A stretch of DNA of 64,000 bases from Trypanosoma brucei. Its lineage: Eukaryota. Under the pieces are notes generated by a model. The model did not search any database and was not told where the DNA came from. It saw only the letters and a program-made list of their open reading frames with translations. The DNA lies in assembly GCA_000002445.1 (NCBI GenBank), contig CP000071.1, forward strand, positions 1,472,001 through 1,536,000. The letters are read 5' to 3'. Of this stretch, positions 4,621 through 59,424 are shown in pieces. The position numbers and the translations under genes were made by a program. Within the stretch, counting starts at the first letter, position 1; every line of letters starts with the position of its first letter.

Positions 4621-4840
4621 CGCTGCGCTTAAATGTCTTTCATTATAATCAATGTATAACCTTTATGTAGTATTTCAATCTATGCCGCTGTGTACGTGCA
4701 CTGCGGTGCCTATCCTTCGGCATTAGAGAGTCACTGTTTGTGTAGATCGTAGCTGCATGTCTGACATCTGGTTCATTAGTGCCGTTTTGAGTCTGCACTG
4801 TTGTGCAACTTGATATGCATCACTGCACACCAACCGTGTG

Positions 4841-4907
4841 TTTCCTCCTTTGGGTGCACCCTTTAATCCTTGTCTTCTCCTTTTTTGTCTCTTTCCCCCT
4901 CGAAAAG
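4841..4907 (+). promoter_or_regulatory. Polypyrimidine tract plus AG dinucleotide, the predicted SL trans-splice acceptor region for PFR2 copy 2. The same element recurs at +2154, +4308 and +6462 (6995-7061, 9149-9215, 11303-11369).
   Basis: About 60 nt of C/T-rich sequence (tttcctcctttgggtgcaccctttaatccttgtcttctccttttttgtctctttccccct) followed by cgaaaAG. It lies about 65 nt upstream of the ATG, the canonical trypanosomatid processing-signal layout. Confidence 0.6.
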
Positions 4908-4971
4908 GTGTCAAACTACTGCCGCATAAACTACGGTTATCCCAAATTTAAGAGAAAGCAATAAAGCATCA

Positions 4972-6774: not shown

Positions 6775-7125
6775 CGCTGCGCTTAAGTGTCTTTCATTAT
6801 AATCAATGTATAACCTTTATGTAGTATTTCAATCTATGCCGCTGTGTACGTGCACTGCGGTGCCTATCCTTCGGCATTAGAGAGTCACTGTTTGTGTAGA
6901 TCGTAGCTGCATGTCTGACATCTGGTTCATTAGTGCCGTTTTGAGTCTGCACTGTTGTGCAACTTGATATGCATCACTGCACACCAACCGTGTGTTTCCT
7001 CCTTTGGGTGCACCCTTTAATCCTTGTCTTCTCCTTTTTTGTCTCTTTCCCCCTCGAAAAGGTGTCAAACTACTGCCGCATAAACTACGGTTATCCCAAA
7101 TTTAAGAGAAAGCAATAAAGCATCA

Positions 7126-8928: not shown

Positions 8929-9279
8929 CGCTGCGCTTAAGTGTCTTTCATTATAATCAATGTATAACCTTTATGTAGTATTTCAATCTATGCCGCTGTG
9001 TACGTGCACTGCGGTGCCTATCCTTCGGCATTAGAGAGTCACTGTTTGTGTAGATCGTAGCTGCATGTCTGACATCTGGTTCATTAGTGCCGTTTTGAGT
9101 CTGCACTGTTGTGCAACTTGATATGCATCACTGCACACCAACCGTGTGTTTCCTCCTTTGGGTGCACCCTTTAATCCTTGTCTTCTCCTTTTTTGTCTCT
9201 TTCCCCCTCGAAAAGGTGTCAAACTACTGCCGCATAAACTACGGTTATCCCAAATTTAAGAGAAAGCAATAAAGCATCA

Positions 9280-11082: not shown

Positions 11083-11433
11083 CGCTGCGCTTAAATGTCT
11101 TTCATTATAATCAATGTATAACCTTTATGTAGTATTTCAATCTATGCCGCTGTGTACGTGCACTGCGGTGCCTATCCTTCGGCATTAGAGAGTCACTGTT
11201 TGTGTAGATCGTAGCTGCATGTCTGACATCTGGTTCATTAGTGCCGTTTTGAGTCTGCACTGTTGTGCAACTTGATATGCATCACTGCACACCAACCGTG
11301 TGTTTCCTCCTTTGGGTGCACCCTTTAATCCTTGTCTTCTCCTTTTTTGTCTCTTTCCCCCTCGAAAAGGTGTCAAACTACTGCCGCATAAACTACGGTT
11401 ATCCCAAATTTAAGAGAAAGCAATAAAGCATCA

Positions 11434-13236
11434 ATGAGCGGAAAGGAAGTTGAAGGTGTTGTGAGTCCTGCGGACCAGCAGCAGCCAGCCGTCCCGGAGG
11501 TAACAGATATCACGCTGGAGGCCGCCCGCAAGCAGAAAATTCACAACCTGAAGTTGAAGACCGCCTGCCTTTCGAATGAGGAATATGTCCAGGACCTGCA
11601 CGTATCCGAGTGGAGTGAGACGCAGAAGCAGAAGCTGCAGGCTGCACACGAGAAAGCGCATGAATTGCTTGCCTCAGTGGAGGGTGGGACGAAGTGGAGC
11701 CTGACAGAGGCGTATGACATCAAGAAGCTGATGCGCGTCTGTGGTCTTGAGATGTCTGTGCGTGAACTGTACAAGCCGGAGGACAAGCCACAGTTCATGG
11801 AGATTGTTGCACTCAAGAAGACAATGAACGAACTGAAGCAACATCACAACAAGACTCGCACGGTGTCTTTCACCGGCATGATCGACAATGCCATCGCCAA
11901 ACTGGAGAAAATCGAAGACGAACTGCGCCGGTCCCAGCTCGACGCTTCTGAGATGGCGCAAGTTCCTGTGGCTGCACTGAAGAATATTGAGGACACGATG
12001 AACGTGGCTGTTGTGCAGACGGCTCTTCTTGGGAACGAGGAGCAGATCAAAGCCCAACTTGCAGCCGTTGAGAAGGCGAACGAAATCCGTAATGTTGCCA
12101 TTGCCGATGGTGAGATGGCGATTGCTGAGGAACAGTATTACATTAAGGCGCAGCTGTTGGAGCACCTTGTGGAGCTTGTGGCCGACAAGTTTCGCATCAT
12201 TGGGCAAACTGAGGATGAGAATAAGAGCTTCAGTAAGATCCACGAGGTACAGAAGAAGTCATTTCAGGAATCTGCCTCAATCAAGGACGCGAAGCGCCGC
12301 CTTAAGCAACACTGCGAGGACGACCTACGTAACCTTCACGATGCCATCCAGAAAGCTGACTTGGAGGACGCCGAAGCCATGAAACGGTTCGCCACGCAGA
12401 AGGAGAAGTCGGAGCGGTTCATCCACGAGAACCTCGACAAACAGGACGAGGCATGGCGTCGCATTCAGGAACTGGAGCGCGTGTTGCAGCGCCTTGGGAC
12501 GGAGCGTTTTGAAGAGGTGAAGCGCCGTATTGAGGAGAACGACCGCGAGGAGAAGCGTAAGGTGGAGTACCAACAGTTCCTCGATGTATGTGGCCAGCAT
12601 AAAAAGCTGCTGGAACTGTCTGTGTACAACTGCGACCTTGCGCTTCGCTGCATGGGTATGCTGGAGGAGATCGTAGCCGAGGGCTGCAGTGCCGTCAAGT
12701 CACGCCATGACAAGACGAACGATGAGTTGTCTGACCTTCGGCTGCAGGTGCACCAGGAGTACCTGGAGGCATTCCGTCGCCTGTACAAAACTCTTGGCCA
12801 GCTTGTGTACAAGAAAGAAAAGCGCCTGGAGGAGATTGATCGCAACATCCGCACCACACACATTCAACTGGAGTTTGCCATTGAGACCTTTGACCCCAAC
12901 GCGAAACTACACTCCGACAAGAAGAAAGACCTATACAAACTTCGTGCGCAGGTGGAGGAAGAGTTGGAGATGCTGAAGGACAAGATGGCGCAGGCGTTGG
13001 AGATGTTTGGACCTACTGAGGATGCGCTGAACCAGGCTGGTATCGATTTTGTTCACCCTGCTGAGGAGGTTGAGTCCGGCAACATGGATCGCCGCAGCAA
13101 GATGGTGGAGTACCGTGCACACCTGGCGAAGCAGGAGGAGGTGAAGATTGCCGCGGAGCGCGAGGAGCTGAAACGATCTAAGATGCTCCAGAGCCAGCAG
13201 TACCGCGGCCGCACGATGCCGCAGATCACTCAGTAG
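11434..13236 (+). CDS. PFR2: Paraflagellar rod protein 2, copy 5 of 5 (last copy, followed by a unique 3' flank).
   Basis: Protein identical to copy 1. Sequence after the stop codon diverges immediately from the inter-copy spacer. Confidence 0.93.
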   Translation: MSGKEVEGVVSPADQQQPAVPEVTDITLEAARKQKIHNLKLKTACLSNEEYVQDLHVSEWSETQKQKLQAAHEKAHELLASVEGGTKWSLTEAYDIKKLMRVCGLEMSVRELYKPEDKPQFMEIVALKKTMNELKQHHNKTRTVSFTGMIDNAIAKLEKIEDELRRSQLDASEMAQVPVAALKNIEDTMNVAVVQTALLGNEEQIKAQLAAVEKANEIRNVAIADGEMAIAEEQYYIKAQLLEHLVELVADKFRIIGQTEDENKSFSKIHEVQKKSFQESASIKDAKRRLKQHCEDDLRNLHDAIQKADLEDAEAMKRFATQKEKSERFIHENLDKQDEAWRRIQELERVLQRLGTERFEEVKRRIEENDREEKRKVEYQQFLDVCGQHKKLLELSVYNCDLALRCMGMLEEIVAEGCSAVKSRHDKTNDELSDLRLQVHQEYLEAFRRLYKTLGQLVYKKEKRLEEIDRNIRTTHIQLEFAIETFDPNAKLHSDKKKDLYKLRAQVEEELEMLKDKMAQALEMFGPTEDALNQAGIDFVHPAEEVESGNMDRRSKMVEYRAHLAKQEEVKIAAEREELKRSKMLQSQQYRGRTMPQITQ

Positions 13237-14246
13237 GATTGTGTACTGTAATTGTATTTTTTGGGTTTTTTTTGAAAGTGGTAGTAGTATTTTAGAGTTG
13301 CTACTTACTTATGAGTTTGATATGTTTGTTTTTATGTATAATTTTTTTTTTGAGAAACTGATGTTTATATGTATGTGTATCTTCTTATTTGCGGTTAGAT
13401 TAGACGATTTTTAGTGTATTTTTATTTGGCTGGGGTTTATTTGGCTGCTATTTGTTGTAGGATGCGCCGTGCTGACGCTTCTTGCTCTTGTATGTCGCCG
13501 AGTTATGCTGATTGTTGCTCTCTCTATATTTCTTTTGTGCGGTGGTGTTGTTGAAAAATTTTGCTGCTAATATTGTTGTCATGTATTTTGTTGTTGTTAC
13601 TTGTCTGTGAGTGGTTTCTTTCTTTCTTTTTTCCACTGTGTTTTGTAATAGTGTCTTACTTTAGCTTAGGATTATAGGTATGGAGGGATGTGTTATTGCC
13701 TGATCAAATATTTCTGTTGGAGTTGTTAGGTTACTGTTGCACGTGACTTCCGTATATATCCGTGTTGGCTTTTTCTTTTTGAGTTAAAGTTCTTTTGTTT
13801 TGGTATAATCGTGTGTGTGGGATCTGCTGCATGTAATGTCCGGATGGTCGAGCCGACGTGGTACCTTTTTTGGGCTTTATCGTGTGGTGGTGAATGTTAC
13901 TTCTTTTGAGTTTGTTAGTGGCATTACCGCTGTTGTAAGCACAATTAAGTGTAGTGTATGAGTATATGCCCACGATCTGGGCTAAAGGCTTGTAGTTGAA
14001 CCGAGCCCGCCGATGTCCCATTTGTGGAGGAGTGGTGTATAACGTGAGCAACGTTAGAGGTTGGTTTTTACCTCATGGAGGTATTGTGTGTTGTACATTT
14101 CTTTTAAGTTGTATTACTGGTGTTCAACCGTATCTGCTCTTCTGTTTTGTTGGACGTATGCTTTGCGTTAACCACTTGTTATTAACGCCCGTGGGTATAT
14201 CCAACGCTGCTGAAATAATCATTAGTGCATTAGCTAACCGTTGACC

Positions 14247-46353: not shown

Positions 46354-49300
46354 ATGAGGGGGTTGCTGTCTCACAATATAGGGGCAATGAAACATCCTGA
46401 GTACCCCCGAACGGATAGCGATGCTTCCTACACGCGGCCGCTCACTATGGATAGTGCTCGCGCAGCTTCGGTATCTGGGAGCGCGCAAAGTGGTTTACCT
46501 GTAGTGTCTTCCATGCAGAGGACACACCCCGGTTCCCCACGCACTACGGTTGCGTGGGATCGGCGCGACGCCAACGCTGGAAAGGCTGAGCCACAAACGG
46601 CTATCGATATGCTGGCGACAGCGTTGTTGCAGCCCTCGCCAAAGGCGTTTGTGGAGTCCGCTCACATTAACCGCTCGTCCACCCCCAAAAAGGTGCGTAC
46701 GCCACCGGTGAAGCACGGTTCACCAAACAAGCAAGGTCCCCGGTGTCACGCTCGGTCGAGCAATGGAGGGACTGACGGTGCCCTACGGCTGAAAGCCACC
46801 ACTCGCTCAGAGAAGCCGGAAGAAGTGCCCCCGGTGGGTACCGGATGCTCTGCTACTGATGGTGCCAAACTGACAACTGACGAAAGGGTTCTAATAGGGA
46901 GGACTGCGTCGGATTTGTACCTCTTTTCAAAAACGAAGACAAAGGGAGGAAGGAGTGTGGGCCGGCAAAGGAAGCGTCTTGAGGGACAAGCGTCAGAGAT
47001 GACCATTGCGGGGAAGCGTGTTTGTGTACATGAGAAGACCCCAGCAACTTCTCGCAAGGATCAGCTGCTCGCACATCCCAACATGGTTATGACAACTAGT
47101 AATGGCAGTGACAGCCAGGATAGTTCTCAGACGACCGATTCAAGGGATGGGTGGTGGGAAGAGGGGAAGGGGCAGGTTGTAAACCCACTCAGCGTCACTA
47201 AGTTAAAGGTTCACCAAAGTGTTGACGATGGTGACACACCCTTGCCGATTTCCATTGACGTAATGTGTTCCACACCCGACAATTCTGAGGAGATCGCCGA
47301 TAGCGTTAGCTCAGTGGGGAGCTCACTGTGCAGTGGCACCGCGTCTCTGGTCAAGGGTCAAATGGACATTATTCCCAACCTCACGGAGGAAAATGGTTCT
47401 GATCAAGGTGTCTCCCATAGGGGAGAAGACCTAAGCGGCGAGGTTAAATCGAAGGAATCATCGCAGTTACTGGTTGGTGAAAATGGAGTCCTTGATGCGC
47501 AAAGGCGTCTTTCGTCAGTGAAGAAGGCATCTGATTTCAGGCTCCAGAGCGCCGGAGCAAAGCCGCCAGGAAAGTTGGTTGCAACCGGCGAAAGCCTGCG
47601 CGGTGCCGGTGATTCCTGCGAGAGTGCCGCACACAAAGTAGAGGAGATAAGCAAGAAAACTATGGAGGTGCTGGACCAAGTACGAAATAGTTGTTTGACA
47701 GTGGCTCCAGCACCTACCAACATCGCGACGGGGAGCCCCCCTGGTGTGTCCGTTGCAAGGAATCCATCCAATGTTAGTTCCATCAAGCCCATTTCGTGTG
47801 GCTCCGCCGGCTGTAGGAAGAACCAAGAAGCGGTAGTGAGTGAGAAGACTAGTAAAGATTTGGCCATAGAGGAGCAGCGTGTTCTCATGGGGTACCTTTC
47901 AGCGTCCGAGTTGGATCTCTCCATGTCAACCTTCAAGCAGATTGGATGCTCTCTCCGAGTCTCAAAAGCACTTCGTGTGCTGAACCTGAAGGGCTGCACG
48001 GCAAGTGAGAAGGGACTGTGTGGCCTGTCAGAGGTTGAAAGTTTAGAGGTTGTGTGTGTTTCACATATGCGAAACCTTACCTCCCTGACAGTACTGGCTA
48101 CGCGTCAGGATGGTCTCTCGTCAAATATCCGAGAGATCGACGCCCGGTGCAGTTCTGTTACCAGTGCTGGTCTTTCGGGGTTAGACAAGATGACGTGCCT
48201 CTCTAAACTCAACCTAAGCCTCACACCAGTGACGAGTGTGAGTCTGCTCGGGGGATCAACTTCCCTGATGGAGCTGAATCTTTCCGGCACTGCTGTGACG
48301 AGCGATGGGCTACTTGGGTTGGAGAAGATTCCCTCACTGACCACACTCAATCTCAGTCGCACTAAAGTAAAGTCACTCCAAAAGATTGCCGAATCGCAGA
48401 CGCTGGAAAATCTAAATCTGTACTCGTGCAGGGTTGATACCAGTGATGTGCGGGGAGTGGAGTGTATGCCTCGGTTGAAGTCCCTTGACTTCAGTACCAC
48501 AAAAGTGTCCGACCTTTCGTTTCTTTCCTCAAGCCCTTCACTGAAAACGTTGAGGGCACAGTGGCTTACTTTGAGGAATTGTGGTGGTATTACTGAGGGT
48601 CGGTACAGCAAGCGTAACATTTCTGGTGGGGATACAAAATTATTCGACTTTATTGGAAACATAAGGGGAAATAACTTTCCGTGCTGGGAAGACCCTGGAA
48701 AAGAGGACCAAGACGTCGAAGCCGGTGTTTGTGGGTTGGCCAAAATACCCACGCTAGAGTTTGTCGATTTATCGTATAGTTCGGTTAGCAGTGTTCGTTC
48801 GTTGTTTTCTAGCAAATCAATCGAGACGATTGTGTTGCGCCGCACCCCGATTGACGACAATGGTATCAAAGATATTGGGCAGCTTCAAACGCTGAAGACG
48901 CTTGTGATTAATAATTTGGGCGATCTCATCTCCGAAGGCGGTGACGAGAATTTATCTGAGACGAAGGGCGTTTTAGTTTCTGTCAAAGATATTACACTGG
49001 CTTTCGGCATGGTTATCCTCGACCTATCCTTTACGGACGTCTATGACCTTCGTATGATAACGTCTTTAAAATGTCTCAAGGAACTATATCTTGTGGAGAC
49101 CCTCATCACCGTCGACGGAATCCGTGGGGTGGAACAATTACCTTCTCTTCGGCTGCTCGATATTTCCCAGACAAGTGTACTTTCGTTGGATTTCCTCTCG
49201 GAGGGATGCAAGGCGCTGGAGCAGTTATTTGTCAAATCCAACCGTAATACAAGCGGCTTTTGTATCGGAAAAATATATCGCCTTCCCATGCTTAAGGAAC

Positions 49301-49920
49301 TCGACGTCAGTGACACTGTTGTAGAGGACATTTCGGCACTCCTGCATTCTTCATGCACACTTCAACGGTTTGTTTGCCGTTGGGGGGAGCGGAGGGTCGC
49401 AAATGGCCTAACGGAGCCGTTGACTCCTTGGTTGCGACCTGCGTTGCTAGATGGCATGGATGCGCTTCCCCATTTGGAAAGCATTGATTTCACAAACTCC
49501 ACCCTTCGATCCGTCACGTTCCTCGCCCGTTCACGTTCGCTTCGGCGTATTGTGTTGGGGCGGAGCAGTAATCTTTCGAACAACGGCATCGGTGGTCTCG
49601 CCCAGATCCCAACTTTGGAGGCGTTGGACCTTAGTTTTTGTGCTCGCATCAGTGACGTGCGGCCACTTGTATCATCGTCTTCTTTGCAGGAGTTAAGGTT
49701 AGTTGGAACCGGTGTGACGGCTGTCGGACTCCACGGCGCATTGCAAATGAAGGCGCTGAAACTTTTAGATGTCACGGGAACTCCCGCAGCAGACGAATTG
49801 AGTGGTATTAGTAATGAGGGAGGCCCGGTGCTTGTGGTTAAGGGCGGTGAGGCGTGCAGCACAAACTTTCCTTCATTATTCAGGCGGTGCCGAACAAGTC
49901 CTGTTGTGATACTACAGTAA
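46354..49920 (+). CDS. Leucine-rich-repeat protein, 1188 aa. Ser/Thr/Pro-rich, probably disordered N-terminal half, then about 25 tandem LRRs of roughly 23-25 residues.
   Basis: Repeated LxxLDLSxTxVTSxxLxGL-type units from about residue 520 to the C-terminus, e.g. LNLSGTAVTSDGLLGLEKIPSLTTLNLSRTKVKSL, LDFSTTKVSDLSFL, LDVSDTVVEDISAL and LDLSFCARISDVRPL. ATG start. Confidence 0.75.
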   Translation: MRGLLSHNIGAMKHPEYPRTDSDASYTRPLTMDSARAASVSGSAQSGLPVVSSMQRTHPGSPRTTVAWDRRDANAGKAEPQTAIDMLATALLQPSPKAFVESAHINRSSTPKKVRTPPVKHGSPNKQGPRCHARSSNGGTDGALRLKATTRSEKPEEVPPVGTGCSATDGAKLTTDERVLIGRTASDLYLFSKTKTKGGRSVGRQRKRLEGQASEMTIAGKRVCVHEKTPATSRKDQLLAHPNMVMTTSNGSDSQDSSQTTDSRDGWWEEGKGQVVNPLSVTKLKVHQSVDDGDTPLPISIDVMCSTPDNSEEIADSVSSVGSSLCSGTASLVKGQMDIIPNLTEENGSDQGVSHRGEDLSGEVKSKESSQLLVGENGVLDAQRRLSSVKKASDFRLQSAGAKPPGKLVATGESLRGAGDSCESAAHKVEEISKKTMEVLDQVRNSCLTVAPAPTNIATGSPPGVSVARNPSNVSSIKPISCGSAGCRKNQEAVVSEKTSKDLAIEEQRVLMGYLSASELDLSMSTFKQIGCSLRVSKALRVLNLKGCTASEKGLCGLSEVESLEVVCVSHMRNLTSLTVLATRQDGLSSNIREIDARCSSVTSAGLSGLDKMTCLSKLNLSLTPVTSVSLLGGSTSLMELNLSGTAVTSDGLLGLEKIPSLTTLNLSRTKVKSLQKIAESQTLENLNLYSCRVDTSDVRGVECMPRLKSLDFSTTKVSDLSFLSSSPSLKTLRAQWLTLRNCGGITEGRYSKRNISGGDTKLFDFIGNIRGNNFPCWEDPGKEDQDVEAGVCGLAKIPTLEFVDLSYSSVSSVRSLFSSKSIETIVLRRTPIDDNGIKDIGQLQTLKTLVINNLGDLISEGGDENLSETKGVLVSVKDITLAFGMVILDLSFTDVYDLRMITSLKCLKELYLVETLITVDGIRGVEQLPSLRLLDISQTSVLSLDFLSEGCKALEQLFVKSNRNTSGFCIGKIYRLPMLKELDVSDTVVEDISALLHSSCTLQRFVCRWGERRVANGLTEPLTPWLRPALLDGMDALPHLESIDFTNSTLRSVTFLARSRSLRRIVLGRSSNLSNNGIGGLAQIPTLEALDLSFCARISDVRPLVSSSSLQELRLVGTGVTAVGLHGALQMKALKLLDVTGTPAADELSGISNEGGPVLVVKGGEACSTNFPSLFRRCRTSPVVILQ

Positions 49921-50285
49921 CCCTACAGTGAGAAGAGATGCCTTGCGCTTCGTTTGTTCACATGACGCATGATCGGCGTGCTTTTACACTTATATCTGCG
50001 AAGCTCGTGTTTCTTCCTTTTTATTTTTTTAAAAAAAGCTTCAATGTTTTAATGGGGCGGCGATGTGAAACGTGGGGCTACGAGCGTGAGGTGAACTCGG
50101 CTAATTATTATGAGCAGGAGAAGAGAGAAGTGGTGAGGGCGGTACTGCGCGCCGTGAAGACATGTGTAATATTTGCACTGCGTGAAATTGAATCATGAAG
50201 AGGAATGGAGATGACACGGGTTGATGTAGAAGAGAGGAAAAAATTTCTAGTAGTAGCGGTTTCGTAGTGACGAGTATAGTTAATT

Positions 50286-50318
<33 letters not shown>

Positions 50319-51446
50319 GTTTGATAATACGGTTGTGAGGATATGCAGTGACCAGCAAAGTAATAGAGGTATAAAGTGAGGCATAAGGAGGGCAATGAAT
50401 GACTGTCCGATGGTGGCCAAACAACAACGACTGCAACAATAAAATGGAAGAGAGGATTTGGTGGGGAGTCTCACGTGTCATAATGACAATTGGGTACGTG
50501 ATTGTTTACTTGTGTTACATCACTTAAACCCACACACCCACTCTTTCTACCTTTCTGTCTGTTTTTCTAGTTCCCAAGGAACTAACTTACCCTTTTGTTC
50601 TTTTTTTTCTTTTCCTCCTTTTTTTTATTTTGGCCATGCATGTGGTTAAATGCACTGCTCCACATGCAAAAGGAGCCAATAGCCGCCGTTGTAACGTTGT
50701 AGTTACCATTCTTGTCGTTATCATTATTACCAAGGCTTCGACCGTCGGGTTTCTCTTTCTCTCTTTTTTTCTTTTTGATCTTGCCCTTGCTCTTGCTTTT
50801 GCCTTTGTTTCTGTTTCTGTCCTTTGTTTTATGTTTATCTGTTTGCATTCCTACGAACACAAATAAATTGCATGCACAAACGCATTATATATATTTATGC
50901 ACATATATATATGTATATATTTGCGTGCTTGTGTGTGAATTTTATTTCTATATTTATTCGTTTACCTTTTTTTATATTTATATTTCATGTGTTCACCGTG
51001 TGATTTTTACCTGTCGGAATATGCAACTGGATGAATGTTGTTACAATTATTATTGTTATCATTATCAATGCTATTATTAATAATATGACCACTACTTACT
51101 TTTCCACTTACTTATATTGCCACGAACTTTTTGTTTTTTTTTTTGGTACGCTTAACCGTGACTCTGCACCACGAATAAAATGAAGAGGTGAAGGAGGGAA
51201 GGAAGGAAGGAAAAAAAAAAAGAAAAAAGAAAATAAAACGAAAAGAAGGGGAGACGGCCGTGAGGTGTTTTTTTTTTTTGGGGAGAAAAAAAAACAATAA
51301 TAAAGAGGAAAGAGGAGAAAAGGCATTTCCTTTTTGCATTTGTGGTTTCGTTACAATGGCGTTCGTCCCTTCTTTTTCTTTTCTTTTCTTTTTTTTCTTA
51401 AATGTTCCTTTTGTTGTTACTTATTTTTGTATTTGTGTGTGTCAGT

Positions 51447-51477
<31 letters not shown>

Positions 51478-51719
51478 CGTGGGTGAAGGAAATGGGAACA
51501 ATTTTCACATGAAGCAAAAAAATAAAATAAAAAGGAAAAAAAAAGGAAAAAAAAAGAAGAAAATTGGATGAGGAATGAAGGGGAGGAAAGAAGAAGAAAA
51601 AGAAGAGGAGGTAAAATAATAATTAAAAAAAAAAAAGAGCACAAAAGACATAATGAAGCAAAAAAAAAAGGAAAAAGGAAAAAGGAAAGGAAAGGAAAAA
51701 GTGAAAATGAATATATGCA

Positions 51720-51763
<44 letters not shown>

Positions 51764-54700
51764 AATATATATATATATGTTTATACGCTGAGACATGTTA
51801 TCAAAACGAAACGAAACAAAACAAAACAAAAAACCAAAAAAAACAACAACAACAACAACAACGAGTACACCTTATGGATAGCAAAAGGGGGTTATTATGA
51901 TCATATAAATATGTGGTCTTTACATACGTGTGATTATTATATACAATTATATTCAGAATTGTTCATTTATTCGCATCACACATTCATTCATTCATTCAAA
52001 AACATATACACATATGAATTTTGTATGAATAAGCACACTTATGTACTCATATAACTTTTCCTCTTTGATTTTGTTTTATTTTCTGTCTTATCATTTAGGT
52101 TGCTTCCGTTTGGTATTCTCTGTGTTATATTCCATTTATTTTTCTAAAAAAAAAGGAAATAATAATTTTTTTTGTTTGTCTCACTGGTCTCTATTACTTC
52201 CTTCCATTTTTATGCTTTCACAAATAAGGCGGCTCTGACTATTATTATTGTTATTATTATTTGGTGGAAAAAAAGGCAAAACAAAAAAAAAAAAAGAACA
52301 GGAGTAAACACCAAATGTAAGCTACCAGGTGCGAAGGCACAAAAAAACAAAAAAGGAAAAATAACAGAGGGAAGGAGACAAACAACCGGGGACACATACA
52401 AAAAGGAGAAAAGAAATGAAAAAAAAAGAAGAGAAATTATTACTTACACATGGCTTCACATGAAAACATGAGAATTGTATACATGATCATATATTTTTGA
52501 AAAAAAAAATGCATGAAAAACACTTACACTTATATGTTTACAAATTTATGCTAATGTGTTATTGCGGCCACTAAAAAGAAAACAAAAAAAACCTAACGGG
52601 TGCTCGGACAAAAAAAGAAAAAAAGTGGAAATGAAGGGATGAAGGGTTTAAACATTTCAAGATATTTATCAAATATAATTTAAATAAATATATATGCAAG
52701 TGAAAAAGGATATGTATGAATAGAGATGAAAGATAAAAAAAATGTAGGTTTATGTCTCAGGGTTGAAAGAAGGAAAAAAATAAAAAGAAAAAATAACAAC
52801 ACCACCACATCCATTTCTTTTTCTCTTTTTTTTTTTTTTACAAAATTTCCTTTTTCCCCCTTTTTTCCTTTTTTTTTTGTTTTAAATGTTTGTGCTTGTG
52901 CTTGTGCTTGTGCTTTTTTTTTTCCTTCATTTTCTCATCCCTCTGATTTTCAGTAGTGTCAGCGGTGTAAAATTTGTAGAATGGATTCATCGGTTAATTT
53001 TTTTTTTATGTGTGTGTATGTTTGATTTTTTTTTCTTTTTTTCTTCCACCTTTGTTTAAATATGAACAATTTTTTTTTTCCAAATAAAAAATGTATAGTG
53101 GTGTTAAAACACATAACGGAGGTGATGAAGTGCATGCTTCTCTATTTTGTTCCCATTTGTTTGTTGTTTTCTTTTTTCTTCTGTTTTTTCTTTTCTCTTT
53201 TTTCTTTTTTTTTTAAATATATTTGGTTGTGTGTGATTATTTGACTATTTGAAATGGCGTGTGAGAGGCCTCATTTTTGAGAATGCGGGGGAAATTAAAA
53301 AAAAGAAAAAAGAACAGGAGTGATAAAATGATACAAATAAAAGTTTTTTTTTTTAAAAAAAATAAAAAAGAGGGAAGGTGAGTGAAGGAGAGGGGAAGTT
53401 TTTTCTTTTTCTTTTGTTTTTTTTAATTTATGTTCTTGGAATTAGTGAACTCAACTGTCCACCTGTTCATTTTACTTTTTTTTTTTTAGTTAATTCATTT
53501 CGGTTTTATTATTTTTCTTATTTCTACTTTTATGCAATAATTTCTCTGCTTTGTGATGATCTTTAGTGCTAAGAACGAAAAGTGAGAGGGAAAGGGGGGG
53601 GGGAAAATAAAAATATAAATATATATGTTTATAAAATAAAACAAGACAGAACAAAACAAAACAAAATTTAAAATAAAAACCCATACTTTTATGTTTTAAT
53701 TTAGCGTTCGCCAAGCTGCGACGGATGTTTTATCTGTCTTATGCGTGTATGTGTATGCATGTGAGTGTGTCCGTGTCTGTAAAAGTCAGCTCATAAATAA
53801 TTATATATATAAGTATTTATATATATATTTATTTATTTATAAATACAAATGCAAGTTTTCATTCTTCAAAAATGAAAACATTTCACCCATTCAAACACAT
53901 TCGCATGCACACAAAAAGAAAAAAAAAGAAGAGGATTATATTTAAAAAAAAATGGACAAAAAGCGTTCAGCCGAGGGAGGGAAGTGGAGAGAAACTGTGA
54001 AGGGTTTCACATATTAAGAGGGAAAATGCAAAATTAAAGGGGGAGGGGGAAAAAAGGAGTCAAGAATGTGTTAGCCTTATGATTATTTTAACAGTTGTTT
54101 TTATTTTTTTTATTTATTTATGTTTTTTTTTTTTCGCCTCCCAGTGTTTGCCTGCACCAGCGTCGATGTTCTGTTTTGTGTCTGTGTGATTTCCGATTCT
54201 TATTTTCCCGCTTCTGCTTTCGTCTTTAATCTTTTTTTAAAAAAAATGTTTCAAAGCGGTTTATTTATTTATTTATTGTGTTGTAGTTTTTTTTTGTGTG
54301 TGTTTACTCTCGTGTTCACCTTTTACTTGATCCACTCTTTTTGTTTTGTTTTCCTTTATTTTCCTTTTTTGTTTTTAAGTCTTATTTTTAGCGTCGTTTG
54401 GTTCCGCTATTTATCCGCTCCATTTGAGCCCGCGAATGAACATATCTGAAGAACCGTATTTGTCTTTTTTTTTTGTTTTTTTGTTTTGTTTTGGAGTATG
54501 TGGCTGTTTTTCCCCCCATCTTTTTTTCCCCTTTTCCTTTTTTTTTTCCCTTCCCTTCCCTTCCCCTTCCCTTTCTTTTTTTTCTTTTAAATTAAAAAAA
54601 AAAACAATTATTTTTACACTGCTTTCTAGTTTTTTTTTTTGAAGAAAAAAAGAAAAGAAAAACAATATTATTGATCTCTCACTCCCTCTTCATATTGACT

Positions 54701-55059
54701 CTCCCCCTCCCATAATATATATGAGTTTATACAAATATTCATTATCACAAGGAGACGCCACTAATAATAAATACTGTCGTTTATTCTTTTGTTCTCTTTT
54801 TTTTTTTTGTTAAATATCTGCTTTATGCATTTATTACACATTTTTTTCTTGTTTATTCTCCCTATATTTATCTTAATGTTTCCTGCACTTACACATGTGG
54901 GTATCATTAAAGAGTTTTTTTTTAAAAAGAAAAAACAAACCAACAACAGCATCAGCAATAATAATAATAACAACAATATATTAACAAAAAAGTAAAAAAA
55001 AAGAAGAAGAGAAAAGAAATAATTCAAAAAAAAAAAGAAAAATAAAAGAATAAAAGTAA
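49921..55059. repeat. About 5.1 kb of AT-rich low-complexity intergenic DNA. It contains several (TA)n microsatellites (about 50294-50318, 51450-51475, 51728-51778), (AAAC)n and (CAA)n runs (51800-51865), (GTGCTT)4 (52894-52917) and alternating purine-rich and pyrimidine-rich blocks.
   Basis: No ORF on either strand has coding-like composition. Only homopolymer and simple-repeat derived ORFs occur. Base composition differs sharply from the flanking genes. Confidence 0.85.
54781..54925 (+). promoter_or_regulatory. Extended polypyrimidine (T-rich) tract plus AG dinucleotides, the predicted trans-splice acceptor region for cytochrome c. An A-rich 5' UTR of about 140 nt follows.
   Basis: ttattcttttgttctcttttttttttttg...tttttttcttgtttattctccctatatttatcttaatgtttcctgcacttacacatgtgggtatcattaaAGAG immediately upstream of the A-rich leader that ends at ATG 55060. 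Confidence 0.5.
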
Positions 55060-55404
55060 ATGCCACCAAAGGAGCGTGCAGCACTTCCACCCGGTGACGC
55101 AGTGCGTGGGGAGAAACTTTTTAAGGGCCGGGCGGCGCAGTGCCACACGGGTACAAAAGGCGGTTCCAACGGTGTTGGGCCTAATTTATATGGAATTGTT
55201 GGCCGTAAATCCGGAACTGTTGAGGGTTTTACGTACAGCAAAGCCAATCAAGATTCCGGTGTTATGTGGACTCCGCAGGTACTTGACGTGTATTTGGAGA
55301 ATCCAAAGAAATTTATGCCCGGCACTAAAATGTCTTTTGCAGGTTTAAAGAAACCACAGGAACGCGCCGACCTCATCGCATACCTCGAGACATTAAAGGA
55401 CTAA
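55060..55404 (+). CDS. CYTC: Mitochondrial cytochrome c, kinetoplastid type with single-cysteine AxxCH haem attachment.
   Basis: 114 aa. [15 protein letters not shown] (AAQCH in place of the canonical CxxCH), then [52 protein letters not shown]. All are classic class-I cytochrome c blocks, including the Met ligand region. Confidence 0.9.
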
Positions 55405-56252
55405 AATGAGATAATAGAAAAATTTATAATATTTATAATATAACTACATTATTGAAAATTTATGTTATCATACATGTATTATTAAAGCAGAGGATGGAAG
55501 GAAGAAAGGAGGGGGGGGGTTATGTTATGATGGCAAGGATTCCATTATTATTATTATTATTTTACTTTGTGGCTATCGTTATCATTATCATTATCATTAT
55601 CATTATCATTATTTATATTTGTTATTTGGGACTATGAGACGAGCAAGAAAACGAAGGAAAACATGACCAATAGTTAATGTTAATGTTAATGTTATTGTTT
55701 TTTTAATTTTTTTTTGTTTTTGATAAGAGGAAAAAGAAGAAGAGACGCCATGAAGGAAAAGAAAAGAAGAACATAAATGAATTACAAAACGAAAATGAAA
55801 AGAAACACAAATCAAAGTAGAATTAAGTGAAACTAAATTTAAAGATGTGTGTGGTGTTGTCACCGTAAATGTTCCTATGCCATGAGAGGTTTATTTTATT
55901 TTTTGAACCTATCAAGATTCTTCTTTTTTTTTTCCTTTTCGTTCCCTTCCGCTCCATTTGCCGGAAAACTACGGTGCGACTTCACATTAATTTAGTGTTT
56001 TGTCTCTTTTGTTTCCCCCCTCCTGACTTTTTGCCATGTCAGAAGAGCAAAATAAAAAACAAAATGAAAAGGAGGAAAAAAAATAAAAATAAAAAAGAAA
56101 AGAGCAAAAGAGGGATGTACGTTATGATGGGGATGGAGGGGGGGGGAGGGAATTTTAAACCGCAACAATACACATTTATATTTTTTATATTTATGAATGC
56201 AAACATGAAAAGGGTGAATAAAAAGAATAAACAGGAACAAAAATATGTAAAA

Positions 56253-56390
56253 GGATGGAGATTGGGGAGGGGAGGAGGAGGAGGAGGAGGAACAGAGGAA
56301 TATTGCGGTGTGCAATTTTTTGTCTTTGTCTTTTTCTTTTTTTATTTTTATTTTTATTTTTCCCTCCCCTCCCCAATCTCCATCCTCCTC
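56253..56390. repeat. 24-nt perfect inverted repeat (ggatggagattggggaggggagg ... cctcccctccccaatctccatcc) separated by an 85-nt spacer of (GGA)n and T-rich sequence. Potential long hairpin or cruciform about 0.9 kb downstream of cytochrome c.
   Basis: Left arm 56253-56276. The right arm (about 56365-56388) is its exact reverse complement, checked base by base. The spacer contains ggaggaggaggaggagg and tttatttttatttttatttt. Confidence 0.8.
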
Positions 56391-57690
56391 TTGCACTTTA
56401 ACGATACGTAAGGTGTTTTGTTATTGAAAAGAGGAGTGTTTGTGTGGCAGGCCAAGTATTACAAGGAGAATAAAACAAACAAATAAAAGAGCAAACAAAC
56501 AAAAGGAAAAGGAGGGATTCAAAAAAGAAAAAGAAAAGAGGAAAGGGAAGCGACCGCAACTCCCTGAGTTCTAAGAACTTTCTTAATCCATATACATGGG
56601 GTAAATACATTTATAAGGGATAATTGAAATAATAATAATAATAATTAAAAAAAATCAAGACAGAACGCAACAGGATATACATCTATATCTATATTATTGT
56701 TATTATTATCGGCCTAAAAAAAATTTCTCGCAATAGTTTTGTTTTTTTTGTCTATGTGCCCGTGTGCTTGTGTTTTTGTTTGTTCCCTTTGTTGTGGGCA
56801 TTTCCAGCGGCCGCATCTTTACAGCCATCACAATTAAGCCCATCAAATGACCGCTCCATGCATTACTCTTCTTCCTATTTCTACTCCATTTCGTCTTATT
56901 ATTATTACTGTTGTTGTTGTTGTTGTTTTTATTGTTATGAACTTTATTGTTGCATATACTCGGTTCTTCATGTATTTTGCCTCCGCATGTCACCTTTCGT
57001 TTTGCTTCATTTCTATTTTTCCCTTTCCCCCCTCCGCCCTCTGGTCTCCTCCTCATCCTTTTGCGTGTGAAGCAGAGGGAAAAAGAGGTGAGGTAGCGGT
57101 AAAAAATAAATTTCCTTTCATAAAGTTACAAATGTTTGTAGGCTTGCATATTTATTAGGGAAGTTGGGTATATAAACATGTAGGAAACAGGTTTGCCGTG
57201 TCGTTCCTTCCGTTCATGCTTAATATAAGCCGTGTGGATATTTGTGACATGTGTGATTATGTTGAGTTATGTCTTGTGACTTACCAGGGATAAGGCCTGA
57301 AAACGGAGTAGTGGAGGAAGCGGACGAGACTGAAACGGTAAGACAGTGTGAACCTCCGCACTGACCTCAGTTTTTTCGCCCTTTTTTTCCTGCTTTTTTT
57401 TATTTTCCATTTGATTGATTATCTTTTTTTTTTTCTTTCTGGAAGTGACCTCTCTTTTGTAGTGGTAGTGTTGGTGGATAGCGTTGTGGTGCAAAATCTG
57501 CCCCGTTGAGCGTCCGTTAGACGAGGCGTCACGGCCTGCCAATAGAGGCGGAGTTGTCAAAAGTATAATAAATTAAACGGGCACTCACAACAACAACAAC
57601 AGTAACCAAACACCGCTTGTGCCGAAAGTGGAAGAAAAGGGAGAGTGAGGCAGCAGGTGAAGGAGAGGGGCAGTAGATATTCTTTTGGCA

Positions 57691-59424
57691 ATGCAGCATC
57701 ACTTCCACCTCAATCGCAGTTTCGATATGCAGTTGTCTCCCGTTGCAGCCTCTATTATCGACTGGGCTCCAGCTGGCCGCACCGGTACCGTTGGGAATTC
57801 CCACACTCCCGCATGTTCCCTTCCAACTGTAGGCGTAAACGGGTCACACACTCATGCGGTGGATTCGACGTCATTAAGCGGTGCGGCTAAACTTAAACCT
57901 GCTGAAAATCTCTCTGGCATGCGGGTGCTGCACCGGTGCACTCGGCAGTTGCTTGCCAATTCGTGCGTGTTGGTGCCGATCTTTTCACGGGGTACGTTTA
58001 ATGTGAATGCGGGGCTGCTCGCTTCTCTCGGTCTGACCGGCGGGTGGAACGATGCCTGCTCGCGGCCTTCCGGTTTCCACGCCAATGATGTGCTGCAATT
58101 GGAGGCGACGTGGGGCAAGAGGCAATGGGCGGGGATATTTAACTTGGTGTGTTTCTCTTGGATGTCTACCACTCTTCCCCTATTTGAGTTTATTACGGTG
58201 TCACCTCGGACAGATTCGTCGCTGCAGGTCGACCGACTGATGTTCAACTGGAGCGGTTTCTGGCGGGTGTTCGTTTCGGGTGACGGCAGTCGCCGAAATT
58301 CGCTCATATCGATGGATTCCCCCGCTGAAAGGTTTGTCGCTGACGTACCTGTTGCGCCCACTGGGAAACTACCTGACGAGAGTAAGTTGGGTGGTGTTAC
58401 CGGTGTTGATAAAAAACATGACGGGCTTTCCACTACGCCTCCGATTACCTCTAATGGTGATGATACAAGACGTGGAGGTGCCATCAGTACTGGAAAAAAA
58501 GTAAAGGTTGGTAATACCAGTGGCAATACCACTTCAATGAATGGCGATAGCGGTAGCGGCACGGCAGGGGTTTGCATGAAGAAAAGGGAAGAAGTTGCTG
58601 AGCCTGTCAGTGGCTCGAGTAGTGAGTTATGCGCCGAAACACAGAAGGTGGGTCGGTGGTGGAGGATTCGAGAGTTGCGCTGCGGTGTAGGTGTTGCTCT
58701 GAAAAATGACATCGTGAGTGCAGCAAACGCTTACTTTGGTTATAGCTTCCACCTGGGTCGAGCACTAACTTTCTCCTCGCATGTGGATGTTCTCCGTCGC
58801 GGCTGCTACTCCGTCACATGCAGCACCGATCGCTTCGACCTCGCCACGCGTCTGCGTGTCAACCACATCACATCGCATTTCACCGAGATGGATGCTGGAA
58901 TTGGTTGGCGGCCGCTACGGCACGTACCTGGCTTTACGTGCCGCCTCTCGTACTCGATGGGCCGCACATCGATGGGTTTTACTGCCCGTGATGTTACTAC
59001 TCACTGGGGTTTGGCGGCTCACAGAACTGAAACTCCGGTGCAGGCCACAGCGGTTCTACCACCACCGCTATCTTCCCTCCCTGTCCCCGTTGCTGTGGAG
59101 TCAAGGGGAGCTTTGTTACAGTTGTGGGACGCTAGCGTGGACTGGGGGCTGAGTGCAGCTCATTTAGTGCTTGGTACTCTTTTACCTTCATTAACTGGGA
59201 GCGCAGCAGCGGGGCGGCGGGTTGTAAAGGAGGGGGAGGAGGTGGAGGTTCCGGAGCATAAACCCAGGCAGTGGAATCGTCTCTCTCGAGCATTTCTTGC
59301 TGGTGTCAGCTACTGTAAAGCTTCGGTAACACAGGCGAAATTTGACCTCACGATGGGGGTGGCGACGCAGCAACCGAGACAATCGAGGCCTCTGAGGTTC
59401 TTTTTTGTTGTTTCAGCCTACTGA
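57691..59424 (+). CDS. Hypothetical protein, 577 aa. Ser/Thr/Gly-rich middle region; the C-terminal third has alternating hydrophobic/polar beta-like patterning. First ATG used; the track start at 57685 is TTG.
   Basis: Single ORF with coding bias. No recognised motif. The C-terminus ends ...RPLRFFFVVSAY. Confidence 0.5.
   Translation: MQHHFHLNRSFDMQLSPVAASIIDWAPAGRTGTVGNSHTPACSLPTVGVNGSHTHAVDSTSLSGAAKLKPAENLSGMRVLHRCTRQLLANSCVLVPIFSRGTFNVNAGLLASLGLTGGWNDACSRPSGFHANDVLQLEATWGKRQWAGIFNLVCFSWMSTTLPLFEFITVSPRTDSSLQVDRLMFNWSGFWRVFVSGDGSRRNSLISMDSPAERFVADVPVAPTGKLPDESKLGGVTGVDKKHDGLSTTPPITSNGDDTRRGGAISTGKKVKVGNTSGNTTSMNGDSGSGTAGVCMKKREEVAEPVSGSSSELCAETQKVGRWWRIRELRCGVGVALKNDIVSAANAYFGYSFHLGRALTFSSHVDVLRRGCYSVTCSTDRFDLATRLRVNHITSHFTEMDAGIGWRPLRHVPGFTCRLSYSMGRTSMGFTARDVTTHWGLAAHRTETPVQATAVLPPPLSSLPVPVAVESRGALLQLWDASVDWGLSAAHLVLGTLLPSLTGSAAAGRRVVKEGEEVEVPEHKPRQWNRLSRAFLAGVSYCKASVTQAKFDLTMGVATQQPRQSRPLRFFFVVSAY

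Follow-up and report, generated by a model that had tools for sequence, protein, structure and literature searches.

The DNA analysed here is a 64-kb stretch of Trypanosoma brucei chromosome 8 (Tb927_08_v4, 1,472,001–1,536,000), in the following called the window. Positions are counted within it (Tb927_08_v4 coordinate minus 1,472,000), an offset that holds for the cytochrome c CDS, for the arithmetic of the 5,073-nt and 1,499-nt UTRs described below, and for the ends of the PFR2 and amidase CDSs. All large ORFs are encoded on the + strand, and therefore the window contains no strand switch, as an earlier sequence-only reading of this DNA had stated. The cytochrome c gene (Tb927.8.5120), whose product is identical to TREU927 Q57UI4 and has the single-cysteine haem motif AAQCH, is located between Tb927.8.5110, encoding a leucine-rich-repeat (LRR) protein with a 100% identical orthologue in T. 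b. gambiense, and Tb927.8.5130 (Table 1). Its upstream spacer (49921–55059; 5,139 bp, GC 0.306) and downstream spacer (55405–57690; 2,286 bp, GC 0.358) add up to an island of 7,425 bp.

These two spacers are the longest, most AT-rich and most repetitive ones of the window. The remaining 17 measure merely 215–2,187 bp, which bears out the earlier remark on the oversized surroundings of cytochrome c, and have GC contents of 0.38–0.49 (save the 215-bp spacer, 0.27), compared to 0.53 in the CDS. Low-complexity sequence occupies 0.51 and 0.41 of the 48-nt windows in the upstream and downstream island spacer, respectively, vs. 0.03–0.20 in the other spacers, the 215-bp one again excepted. The island, although representing 12% of the window, harbors 104 of the 149 rows (70%) reported by Tandem Repeats Finder (TRF), including all microsatellites that had been named before, as well as 24 A8+ and 30 T8+ homopolymer runs, GT-rich stretches such as (TTGTGC)4 and GTGTGT runs, and G4-type motifs at 56129–56150 (+ strand) and 54548–54571 (− strand). 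The alternation of purine and pyrimidine blocks pointed out previously is likewise found here: every switch point in the 64 kb, eight from A to T and nine from T to A, as defined by 150-nt flanks of which each contains at least 45% A or T, falls into the island. Centromeric arrays of T. brucei consist of tandem AT-rich units of ~147 bp (or of another long period) and are flanked by retroelements. Such an array was ruled out, since TRF reports no period longer than 40 bp (1.9 copies) for the island, which has no repeats, dispersed ones included, in common with the remaining 56 kb; because no tandem period exceeds 40 bp, the sequence-only reading was also right in denying a 147-bp-type array.

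Table 1. Features of the cytochrome c locus (positions in the window; PPT, polypyrimidine tract).
Feature	Position	Strand	Source and remarks
Tb927.8.5110 CDS	46354–49920	+	ORF; 1,188-aa LRR protein; Pfam LRR_4 and LRR_8
3'UTR of Tb927.8.5110	49921–54993	+	Kolev 2010 Table S13 (PMC2936537)
(TA)n	50294–50318; 51451–51476; 51728–51778		Tandem Repeats Finder
Biggest microsatellite cluster	51728–51862	.	TRF and sequence; (TA)25.5, then (CAAAA)n and (AAC)17
(CAAAA/AAC)n	51802–51862		
(TTGTGC)4.3	52890–52915		
Cytochrome c trans-splice signal	54780–54914	+	PPT/AG scan; PPTs 54780–54808 and 54841–54863, first downstream AG 54911–54914
Cytochrome c 5'UTR	54879–55059	+	Kolev Table S3; A-rich, 66% A
Cytochrome c CDS (Tb927.8.5120)	55060–55404	+	ORF; 114 aa; Pfam PF00034
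Cytochrome c 3'UTR	55405–56918	+	Kolev Tables S3 and S13
(TATCAT)6.5	55574–55612		
(GTTAAT)4.5	55673–55699		
Internal PPT and first AG (55994–55995), cytochrome c 3'UTR	55918–55995	+	PPT/AG scan
Inverted repeat, cytochrome c 3'UTR	56253–56395	+	purine arm GGATGGAGATTGGGGAGGGGAGG pairs with pyrimidine arm CCTCCCCTCCCCAATCTCCATCC; potential long hairpin
(AAAC)n	56473–56503		
Tb8.NT.84 splice signal	56993–57072	+	PPT/AG scan; PPTs and AG (57071–57072)
Tb8.NT.84	57073–57306	+	Kolev Table S7 (PMC2936537); 233-nt trans-spliced polyadenylated novel transcript
Predicted splice signal and 245-nt 5'UTR of Tb927.8.5130	57371–57690	+	PPT/AG scan; PPTs 57371–57440, AG 57444–57445

Transcript mapping had been recommended as a check on the island, and the sites published from RNA-seq of procyclic cells only (Kolev 2010, PMC2936537) indeed divide it into four parts. 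For the 3'UTR of Tb927.8.5110, Kolev Table S13 gives an averaged length of 4,438 nt (poly(A) near 54360) and a predominant length of 5,073 nt (site 54993; PMC2936537), the latter in agreement with the site arithmetic (54993 − 49920 = 5,073). T. brucei 3'UTRs are 388 nt long at the median and range to ~6,000 nt (Kolev 2010, PMC2936537), and the one of Tb927.8.5110 thus is exceptionally long, at the top of the published range. It follows directly downstream of a same-strand CDS within a single transcription unit, and between 49921 and 54879 neither a further gene nor a separately trans-spliced transcript is listed. The distal poly(A) sites are assigned to the upstream CDS, with two caveats. Firstly, the predominant site 54993 falls beyond the splice site of cytochrome c, within an A-run encoded in the cytochrome c 5'UTR, and may be an internal-A artefact; judging from the PPT/AG scan and the published spacing of 123–178 nt, the true distal end more likely lies near 54740–54790, which would place it ~100–200 nt before the next polypyrimidine tract and AG. 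Secondly, the 3'UTR sequence in TriTrypDB also opens with the bases at 49921, but in this automatic annotation it comprises 2,659 nt and ends at 52579 (PMC5568443 supplementary file 1), so that 52580–54770 could be a minor isoform or an unannotated RNA. As Kolev's poly(A) sites were attributed to genes by position, they do not by themselves prove the continuity of a 5-kb UTR, for which no Northern blot or long-read support was found; we infer that the full 4.4–5 kb form one continuous UTR in most molecules. The Tb927.8.5110 mRNA belongs to the bound set in an RBP10 pull-down (PMC5568443), where its enrichment was modest at ~3-fold (3.09 and 3.17), and the UA(U)6 motif occurs in its 3'UTR in two copies only (50022 and 54102).

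Very long UTRs of a strongly stage-regulated mRNA had been considered before. The kind of feature was recognized correctly, but not its owner: the 5.1 kb appear to belong to the 3'UTR of Tb927.8.5110, whereas cytochrome c has a 5'UTR of ~145–181 nt and a 3'UTR of ~1.3–1.5 kb. Its published transcript (54879–56918) is flagged "alt 3UTR" (Kolev Table S3, PMC2936537). In this strain's sequence no AG precedes the published start at 54879, and the first AG after the polypyrimidine tract leads to an exon start at 54913. The predominant poly(A) site of the cytochrome c 3'UTR is 56903, corresponding to 1,499 nt (averaged length, 1,283 nt; Kolev Table S13, PMC2936537), and is separated by 170 nt from the splice site at 57073 (published range, 123–178 nt). 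The polypyrimidine tract and AG within this 3'UTR (55918–55995) constitute a candidate site for the "alt 3UTR" processing; the T. brucei-type Logan contigs L003–L006 stop at ~55930 or 55997.

Further downstream, the exon start predicted by the scan coincides exactly with the published start of Tb8.NT.84, which is present at ~1 RNA per cell and is the sole novel transcript in Kolev Table S7 from 14105 to the window's end (PMC2936537). It contains no meaningful ORF and its structure is not unusual (fold z = −0.64). Its 3' end and the predicted exon start of Tb927.8.5130 (57446) are 140 nt apart, within the published coupling distance of 123–178 nt. The junctions at 54780–54914, 56993–57072, and 57371–57445 all have the canonical layout and spacing of coupled polyadenylation and trans-splicing signals, with poly(A) addition ~140 nt upstream; these signals account for ~5% of the island, however, and leave its length unexplained.

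Size, odd composition and GT-rich stretches would fit a boundary of chromatin or transcription among genes arrayed head to tail, at which base J and H3.V mark termination and H2A.Z and H4K10ac mark re-initiation, and a base J/H2A.Z boundary was among the earlier proposals. Internal boundaries of transcription units are often adjoined by tRNA, snRNA, or rRNA genes. The island, however, contains no tRNA gene (ARAGORN) and no snRNA gene, the coding strand does not change, and poly(A) and spliced-leader sites tile it in the manner of ordinary mRNA ends. Moreover, 5'-triphosphate mapping assigned Tb927.8.4900–5330 to a single Pol II unit that spans the island and for which no "Internal" start site is listed (Kolev Table S14, PMC2936537), and the flanking mRNAs are about equally abundant (18.4 and 18.8 RNAs per cell; Kolev 2010). 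A boundary at this position is thus highly improbable, and the earlier proposal is not supported.

The island could instead give rise to functional RNAs, such as a lncRNA from the upstream spacer's distal half or siRNAs made from long purine/pyrimidine hairpins. The database 3'UTR ending at 52579 leaves ~2.2 kb over, the upstream spacer contains 26 sense-strand polypyrimidine tracts with an AG after them, and more than 1,400 annotated lncRNAs are mentioned for T. brucei in PMC9200285. Furthermore, Kolev 2010 (Tables S3 and S7) lists Tb8.NT.84 and, for cytochrome c, the "alt 3UTR" product among the UTR-derived and novel short transcripts, and hairpins of the island fold at z = −3.8 and −5.4, the latter value belonging to the inverted repeat at 56253–56395. 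These z-scores are, however, a trivial consequence of adjoining A-rich and U-rich blocks, and the changes found in T. b. gambiense in the arms of the 56253–56395 hairpin are not compensatory. Novel trans-spliced transcripts are absent from Kolev's tables for 49921–54879, Tb927.8.5110 is not flagged for alternative 3'UTR processing, the two listed short transcripts are of low copy number with neither a conserved structure nor an ORF, and the island is not conserved outside Trypanozoon. A search of the island with Rfam covariance models, which had been advised for small RNAs and snoRNAs, yielded no family at the gathering threshold, snoRNAs included; sub-threshold matches were miRNA-like only and fell on (TA)n and the 56253–56395 hairpin. 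Pfam domains above cut-off were not detected in the island either, and there is no coding relic. The idea of a host for ncRNAs is therefore upheld marginally, by Tb8.NT.84 and one UTR-internal cytochrome c product, and a functional lncRNA or siRNA source appears unlikely.

Independently of any UTR role, the repeated points at which poly(dA)/G gives way to poly(dT)/C might act as nucleosome-poor replication origins and make the island an initiation zone or R-loop hot spot. Strong origins were found at transcription-unit boundaries in earlier MFA-seq and ORC maps. According to stranded SNS-seq, T. brucei origins are situated mostly between CDSs, exactly at switches with poly(dA) upstream and poly(dT) downstream, lie close to G4s, are little occupied by nucleosomes, and overlap RNA:DNA hybrids (PMC13179062). 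This signature occurs eight times in the island, which contains all A-to-T switches of the window, A8+/T8+ runs, and G4-type motifs. The signature is generic, however: random inter-CDS controls carry A8/T8 in 9% and A4/T4 in 78% of cases, and merely 1,225 origins were mapped genome-wide, on Tb427 coordinates (PMC13179062). In addition, the island is not at a transcription-unit boundary (Kolev Table S14). A role in replication initiation is consequently doubtful.

With a probability of roughly 80%, we regard the island as UTRs of the flanking mRNAs inside one Pol II unit and not as intergenic space with a function of its own. It is transcribed as part of the long polycistronic unit and would be shared out almost wholly among these UTRs: the upstream 5.1 kb would represent the 3'UTR of the LRR gene Tb927.8.5110, the polypyrimidine/AG signal at its end would direct both polyadenylation of this mRNA and trans-splicing of cytochrome c, and the downstream 2.3 kb comprise the cytochrome c 3'UTR with its internal alternative processing site, Tb8.NT.84, and the predicted 5'UTR of the next gene. 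The AT-rich low complexity, with (AU)n, poly(A), poly(U), and purine/pyrimidine blocks, is what is commonly seen in long T. brucei 3'UTRs. Such 3'UTRs of at least 5 kb, in which low-complexity stretches, (AU)n and poly(A) abound, are documented, for instance for RBP10 (7.3 kb) and ZC3H22 (>5 kb), and (AU)9 or longer tracts occur in at least 580 mRNAs (PMC8982893). The Tb927.8.5110 3'UTR resembles these two in its multi-kilobase length within a polycistronic unit, in its AT-rich low-complexity tracts with (AU)9–25 and poly(A) and poly(U) runs, in its many, mostly unused internal polypyrimidine tracts, and in the attachment of a stage-specific RNA-binding protein, as indicated by the RBP10 pull-down. 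It differs in that Tb927.8.5110 is an uncharacterised LRR protein rather than an RNA-binding protein or kinase, and in that its UTR extent depends on the annotation (2.66 vs. 4.4–5.1 kb). By analogy, the UTR might provide a platform for RNA-binding proteins that govern stage-specific mRNA stability and translation, and its length may matter for regulation. The island would thus be an ordinary, already mapped instance of very long, slippage-prone UTRs, a known feature of T. brucei.

Comparison with relatives, also recommended earlier, gave no indication of a conserved island: no alignable similarity to the spacers of T. cruzi or T. conorhini was found, and these are mostly shorter, by a factor of two to five (1.6–2.0 kb upstream and 0.9–3.6 kb downstream of cytochrome c). 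In Leishmania orientalis the syntenic locus carries cytochrome c twice in tandem, with spacers of 2.4, 2.1, and 2.9 kb that add up to a similar span, and Lotmaria and Novymonas likewise have two copies, which might suggest that the upstream spacer is a decayed second cytochrome c copy with its UTRs. However, a tblastn search of the upstream spacer for remains of cytochrome c came out empty, the top match (E = 0.3) covering 12 residues, and the upstream and downstream spacers are dissimilar. As T. cruzi and T. conorhini have a single copy and short spacers, the duplication looks specific to Leishmaniinae, and a lost copy is effectively refuted. Within Trypanozoon, substitutions relative to T. 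b. gambiense amount to 1.7–2.1% in the island, 1.3–3.3% in other spacers, and 0.25–0.7% in most CDS, and the repeat DNA would expand and contract by replication slippage under slight sequence constraint. The sequence-only reading had suspected such a slippage-prone region, and this suspicion is supported: indel events relative to T. b. gambiense are two to three times as frequent in the island (8–12 per kb) as in neighbouring spacers (~3.5 per kb), T. equiperdum carries one of the island microsatellites at a different length, and two public assemblies are broken within the island, the gap in the T. b. gambiense assembly starting at 51853.

According to ORF and Pfam searches, all genes of the window lie on the forward strand (see table), and cytochrome c, whose protein is identical to Q57UI4 of T. 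brucei TREU927, is flanked by the unusually large AT-rich low-complexity island (49921–57690) that the sequence-only reading had described. Its extent is confirmed by spacer length, GC content, and the repeat, low-complexity and block counts. The spacer upstream of cytochrome c measures 5,139 bp (GC 0.306) and the downstream one 2,286 bp (GC 0.358); the remaining spacers span 215–2,187 bp, with a GC content of 0.38–0.49 in all save one of 215 bp, and that of the coding sequences is 0.53. Low-complexity sequence makes up 0.51 of the upstream and 0.41 of the downstream spacer, compared with 0.03–0.20 elsewhere, the 215-bp spacer excepted, and 104 of the 149 TRF rows fall inside the island, which represents 12% of the window sequence. 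All microsatellites named from the sequence were found in it, and the alternation of purine- and pyrimidine-rich blocks, unique to the island within the window, was borne out at the switch points (8/8 A-to-T, 9/9 T-to-A). Polypyrimidine tracts are equally frequent in sense (36) and antisense (39) orientation. In agreement with the earlier description, there is neither a centromere-type array, since TRF detected no long-period tandem array in the island, nor a strand switch. An origin as a dispersed repeat or transposon was rejected, as the island has no repeat in common with the remainder of the window, and its upstream and downstream spacers are dissimilar.

Genes, published transcripts and sequence motifs of the window (window coordinates)
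Feature	Position	Strand	Remarks
PFR2-type array, five tandem near-identical 600-aa genes	2818–13236	+	2,154-bp period, 351-bp spacers
Tb8.NT.83, published novel transcript	13652–14105		directly after the PFR2 array
RNA polymerase I largest subunit	within window	+	
2,886-aa protein	within window	+	
Leucine-rich-repeat (LRR) protein, Tb927.8.5110	46354–49920	+	1,188 aa
ORF called as gene in T. b. gambiense	50101–50481	-	no Pfam match
Hairpin	51190–51410		fold z = -3.8 vs shuffles
G-quadruplex-type motif	54548–54571	-	(CCCTT)n tract in distal Tb927.8.5110 3'UTR
Cytochrome c, Tb927.8.5120	55060–55404	+	114 aa, AAQCH haem motif
G-quadruplex-type motif	56129–56150	+	GGGGATGGAGGGGGGGGGAGGG; sense strand of cytochrome c 3'UTR
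Hairpin	56253–56395		23-nt perfect arms; fold z = -5.4 vs shuffles
ORF called as gene in T. b. gambiense	56706–57056	-	no Pfam match
Tb8.NT.84, published novel transcript	57073–57306		233 nt, ~1 RNA per cell (Table S7, PMC2936537)
577-aa protein	57691–59424	+	
Diacylglycerol kinase	within window	+	

The window corresponds exactly to Tb927_08_v4 1,472,001–1,536,000, because the published cytochrome c coding sequence lies at 1527060–1527404 and the ends of the PFR2 and amidase coding sequences also agree; the published 3'UTR lengths of 5,073 nt (54993 minus 49920) and 1,499 nt (56903 minus 55404) fit this mapping as well. The RNA-seq study of Kolev et al. (2010; PMC2936537) mapped the spliced-leader and poly(A) ends of transcripts in procyclic cells. 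In these data, the 3'UTR of Tb927.8.5110 averages 4,438 nt, with the predominant poly(A) site at window position 54993 (5,073 nt; dispersion 640; Table S13), and the cytochrome c transcript extends from 54879 to 56918 with a 3'UTR of predominantly 1,499 nt (averaged 1,283 nt). Tb8.NT.84 is the sole novel transcript nearby. The long UTRs proposed from the sequence are thus supported, but the 5.1-kb block belongs to the mRNA of the upstream gene, not to that of cytochrome c. The suggested boundary is not supported at this site: the whole region lies within one Pol II unit (Tb927.8.4900–5330; Table S14), in which no internal transcription start was mapped. Since 3'UTRs in this dataset have a median of 388 nt and reach about 6,000 nt at most, and only three genes exceed 4 kb and one exceeds 5 kb among the rows of Table S13 considered, the 3'UTR of Tb927.8.5110 is at the extreme of the known length distribution. 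These transcripts have been on the map since 2010, long UTRs of this kind are well described, and the importance of the result beyond correct annotation is slight. A large "non-coding island" beside a trypanosome gene should be read first as the 3'UTR of the upstream gene.

Splice acceptors, predicted as the first AG following each sense-strand polypyrimidine tract, placed the beginning of exons at 54913 for cytochrome c, at 55996 within the cytochrome c 3'UTR, at 57446 for the next gene and at 57073, the last being exactly the published start of Tb8.NT.84. Mapped poly(A) sites lie 170 and 140 nt from the acceptors, both covered by the published interquartile range of 123–178 nt (PMC2936537). 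Two details of the map do not fit. No AG precedes the published cytochrome c start at 54879 in the window sequence, and the predominant Tb927.8.5110 poly(A) site at 54993 (Tb927_08_v4 1526993) lies in the cytochrome c 5'UTR. Because this site follows the acceptor of cytochrome c and falls within an encoded A-run (54985–55003), it is probably an artefact of internal-A mapping or priming. The actual distal site would then be expected near 54740–54790, and the 5,073-nt figure would be too long by about 200–250 nt. In the TriTrypDB automatic annotation cited in PMC5568443, where it is marked "not checked", the 3'UTR of this gene is just 2,659 nt long, as opposed to 4.4–5.1 kb by RNA-seq, and therefore the exact extent and isoform mix of the Tb927.8.5110 3'UTR are provisional.

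These data support the view that the island consists of UTR sequence serving post-transcriptional control; its length itself might also be functional. Long, low-complexity, AU-rich 3'UTRs are known in T. brucei, with examples of at least 5 kb, and (AU)9 or longer tracts occur in at least 580 mRNAs (PMC8982893). The multi-kb, low-complexity, AU-rich 3'UTR of Tb927.8.5110 resembles in particular the 7.3-kb 3'UTR of RBP10, which abounds in low-complexity stretches as well as poly(A) and (AU)n tracts, with effects on expression that depend on context (PMC8982893). When Mugo and Clayton pulled down RBP10, the Tb927.8.5110 mRNA was enriched 3.09- and 3.17-fold and belonged to the bound set; cytochrome c mRNA reached 1.4–1.6-fold and was flagged as higher on procyclic polysomes (PMC5568443). 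Cytochrome c mRNA is also enriched on polysomes of stumpy forms (PMC3694164). Each of the two UTRs contains UA(U)6 motifs, that of Tb927.8.5110 at 50022 and 54102 and that of cytochrome c at 55897 and 56179. With the 2,659-nt annotation, motif counts and regulatory analyses of the RBP10-bound Tb927.8.5110 mRNA are probably too low.

At the DNA level, the island might additionally act as a zone of replication initiation and R-loop formation inside the transcription unit; its unusual length would then be due to a cluster of origins being selected for or tolerated, and not to mRNA regulation. According to stranded SNS-seq (2026), T. brucei origins are located mostly between coding sequences at switches from upstream poly(dA) to downstream poly(dT), and are accompanied by G4s, nucleosome depletion and RNA:DNA hybrids (PMC13179062). 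The sequence of the island agrees with this topology in having eight switches from poly(dA)/G to poly(dT)/C, two G4-type motifs and a composition predicted to be poor in nucleosomes. However, this signature is common, and we consider an origin function improbable.

The searches for ncRNAs in the island yielded no Rfam family at gathering score and no tRNA. Permissive E-values produced miRNA families far below gathering, on (TA)n and the 56253–56395 hairpin, which were rejected as repeat-driven. The two hairpins listed in the table owe their good z-scores to adjoining purine and pyrimidine blocks, and changes in the arms of the 56253–56395 hairpin in T. b. gambiense are non-compensatory. The fold test detected no unusual structure in Tb8.NT.84. 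Among the island ORFs, none matched a Pfam family above cut-off. Two of the ORFs, of 127 and 114 aa, are annotated as genes in T. b. gambiense (6311–6694 and 11605–11949 of its locus, L002); both are antisense, opposed to transcription, and probably spurious. A lost second cytochrome c copy was rejected, as the island contains no cytochrome c pseudogene.

The gene order 2,850-aa protein, LRR protein, cytochrome c, hypothetical protein and DAG kinase is kept across trypanosomatids, with synteny taken from the cytochrome c homologues; the homologue search with the LRR protein, in which LRR proteins saturated the word index, matched the T. b. gambiense orthologue. The spacers upstream and downstream of cytochrome c measure 5.1 and 2.3 kb in T. 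brucei, 2.0–2.3 and 0.9–3.6 kb in T. cruzi (L011–L013, strain-dependent), and 1.6 and 1.0 kb in T. conorhini. In a GC-rich trypanosomatid (L008, Logan SRR29272288), whose contig ends downstream, no more than 321 bp (9680–10000) separate the LRR gene from cytochrome c, as opposed to 5,139 bp in T. brucei. The island gave only low-complexity matches, and no conserved element, against T. cruzi, T. conorhini, Leishmania and a further Trypanosoma mRNA contig. DNA identity is 99.4% to the T. equiperdum contig and about 94–97%, gaps counted, to the locus on T. b. gambiense chromosome 8. Substitutions relative to the latter amount to 1.7–2.1% in the island, 1.3–3.3% in other spacers and 0.25–0.7% in most coding sequences, and indel events to 8–12 per kb in the island against about 3.5 in the other spacers. 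A (TATCAT/ATT)n tract shows a length difference of ~50 bp relative to T. equiperdum. Moreover, two public Trypanozoon assemblies are interrupted in the repeat-rich stretch: in T. b. gambiense DAL972 a 100-N gap (L002 8036–8135) replaces 1,362 bp (window 51853–53214), and T. equiperdum CZPT02001086.1 (start of L001) breaks at window 54596, 465 bp upstream of cytochrome c. Judging by the spacer variability, the indel excess, the change in tract length and the assembly breaks, the island appears to be weakly constrained DNA that has expanded in the T. brucei lineage, and these observations bear out the earlier suggestion of a slippage-prone region.

In T. cruzi, the spacer 3' of cytochrome c is 3,634 bp long in one strain (L012 10346–13979) vs 1,471 and 909 bp in two others (L011, L013), which suggests an insertion or haplotype difference. 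At the syntenic position, Leishmania orientalis (L007) has a tandem pair of cytochrome c copies (7601–7939 and 10001–10345), with spacers of 2.1–2.9 kb, but the locus table lists only one of the pair as a gene. Two adjacent copies also occur in Lotmaria passim and Novymonas, and one in the Trypanosoma species examined.

Four T. brucei-type Logan contigs (L003–L006) have a common cytochrome c region and three unrelated 5' extensions joined at (CAAA)n. These 5' ends contradict one another and lack the spliced leader; as evidence for mRNA ends they were reduced to a weak hint, and they are probably assembly chimeras formed via low-complexity k-mers. In two RNA-seq contigs of another Trypanosoma (L015, L016), whose cytochrome c shows 89% identity, the spliced-leader 3' end joins a 54-nt 5'UTR of 90% AT, and the 3'UTR comprises at least 557 nt with 25% GC and (TA)n at its end. 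T. brucei is therefore not alone in having AT-rich repeat UTRs on either side of cytochrome c. Three further Logan RNA-seq contigs (L017, positions 100–444, L018 and L019) encode a cytochrome c of 83% identity with in-frame stop codons at T. brucei Glu and Gln positions, consistent with a Blastocrithidia-like trypanosomatid with reassigned stop codons; L018 carries the variant spliced-leader 3' end CTGTACTTTATTG.
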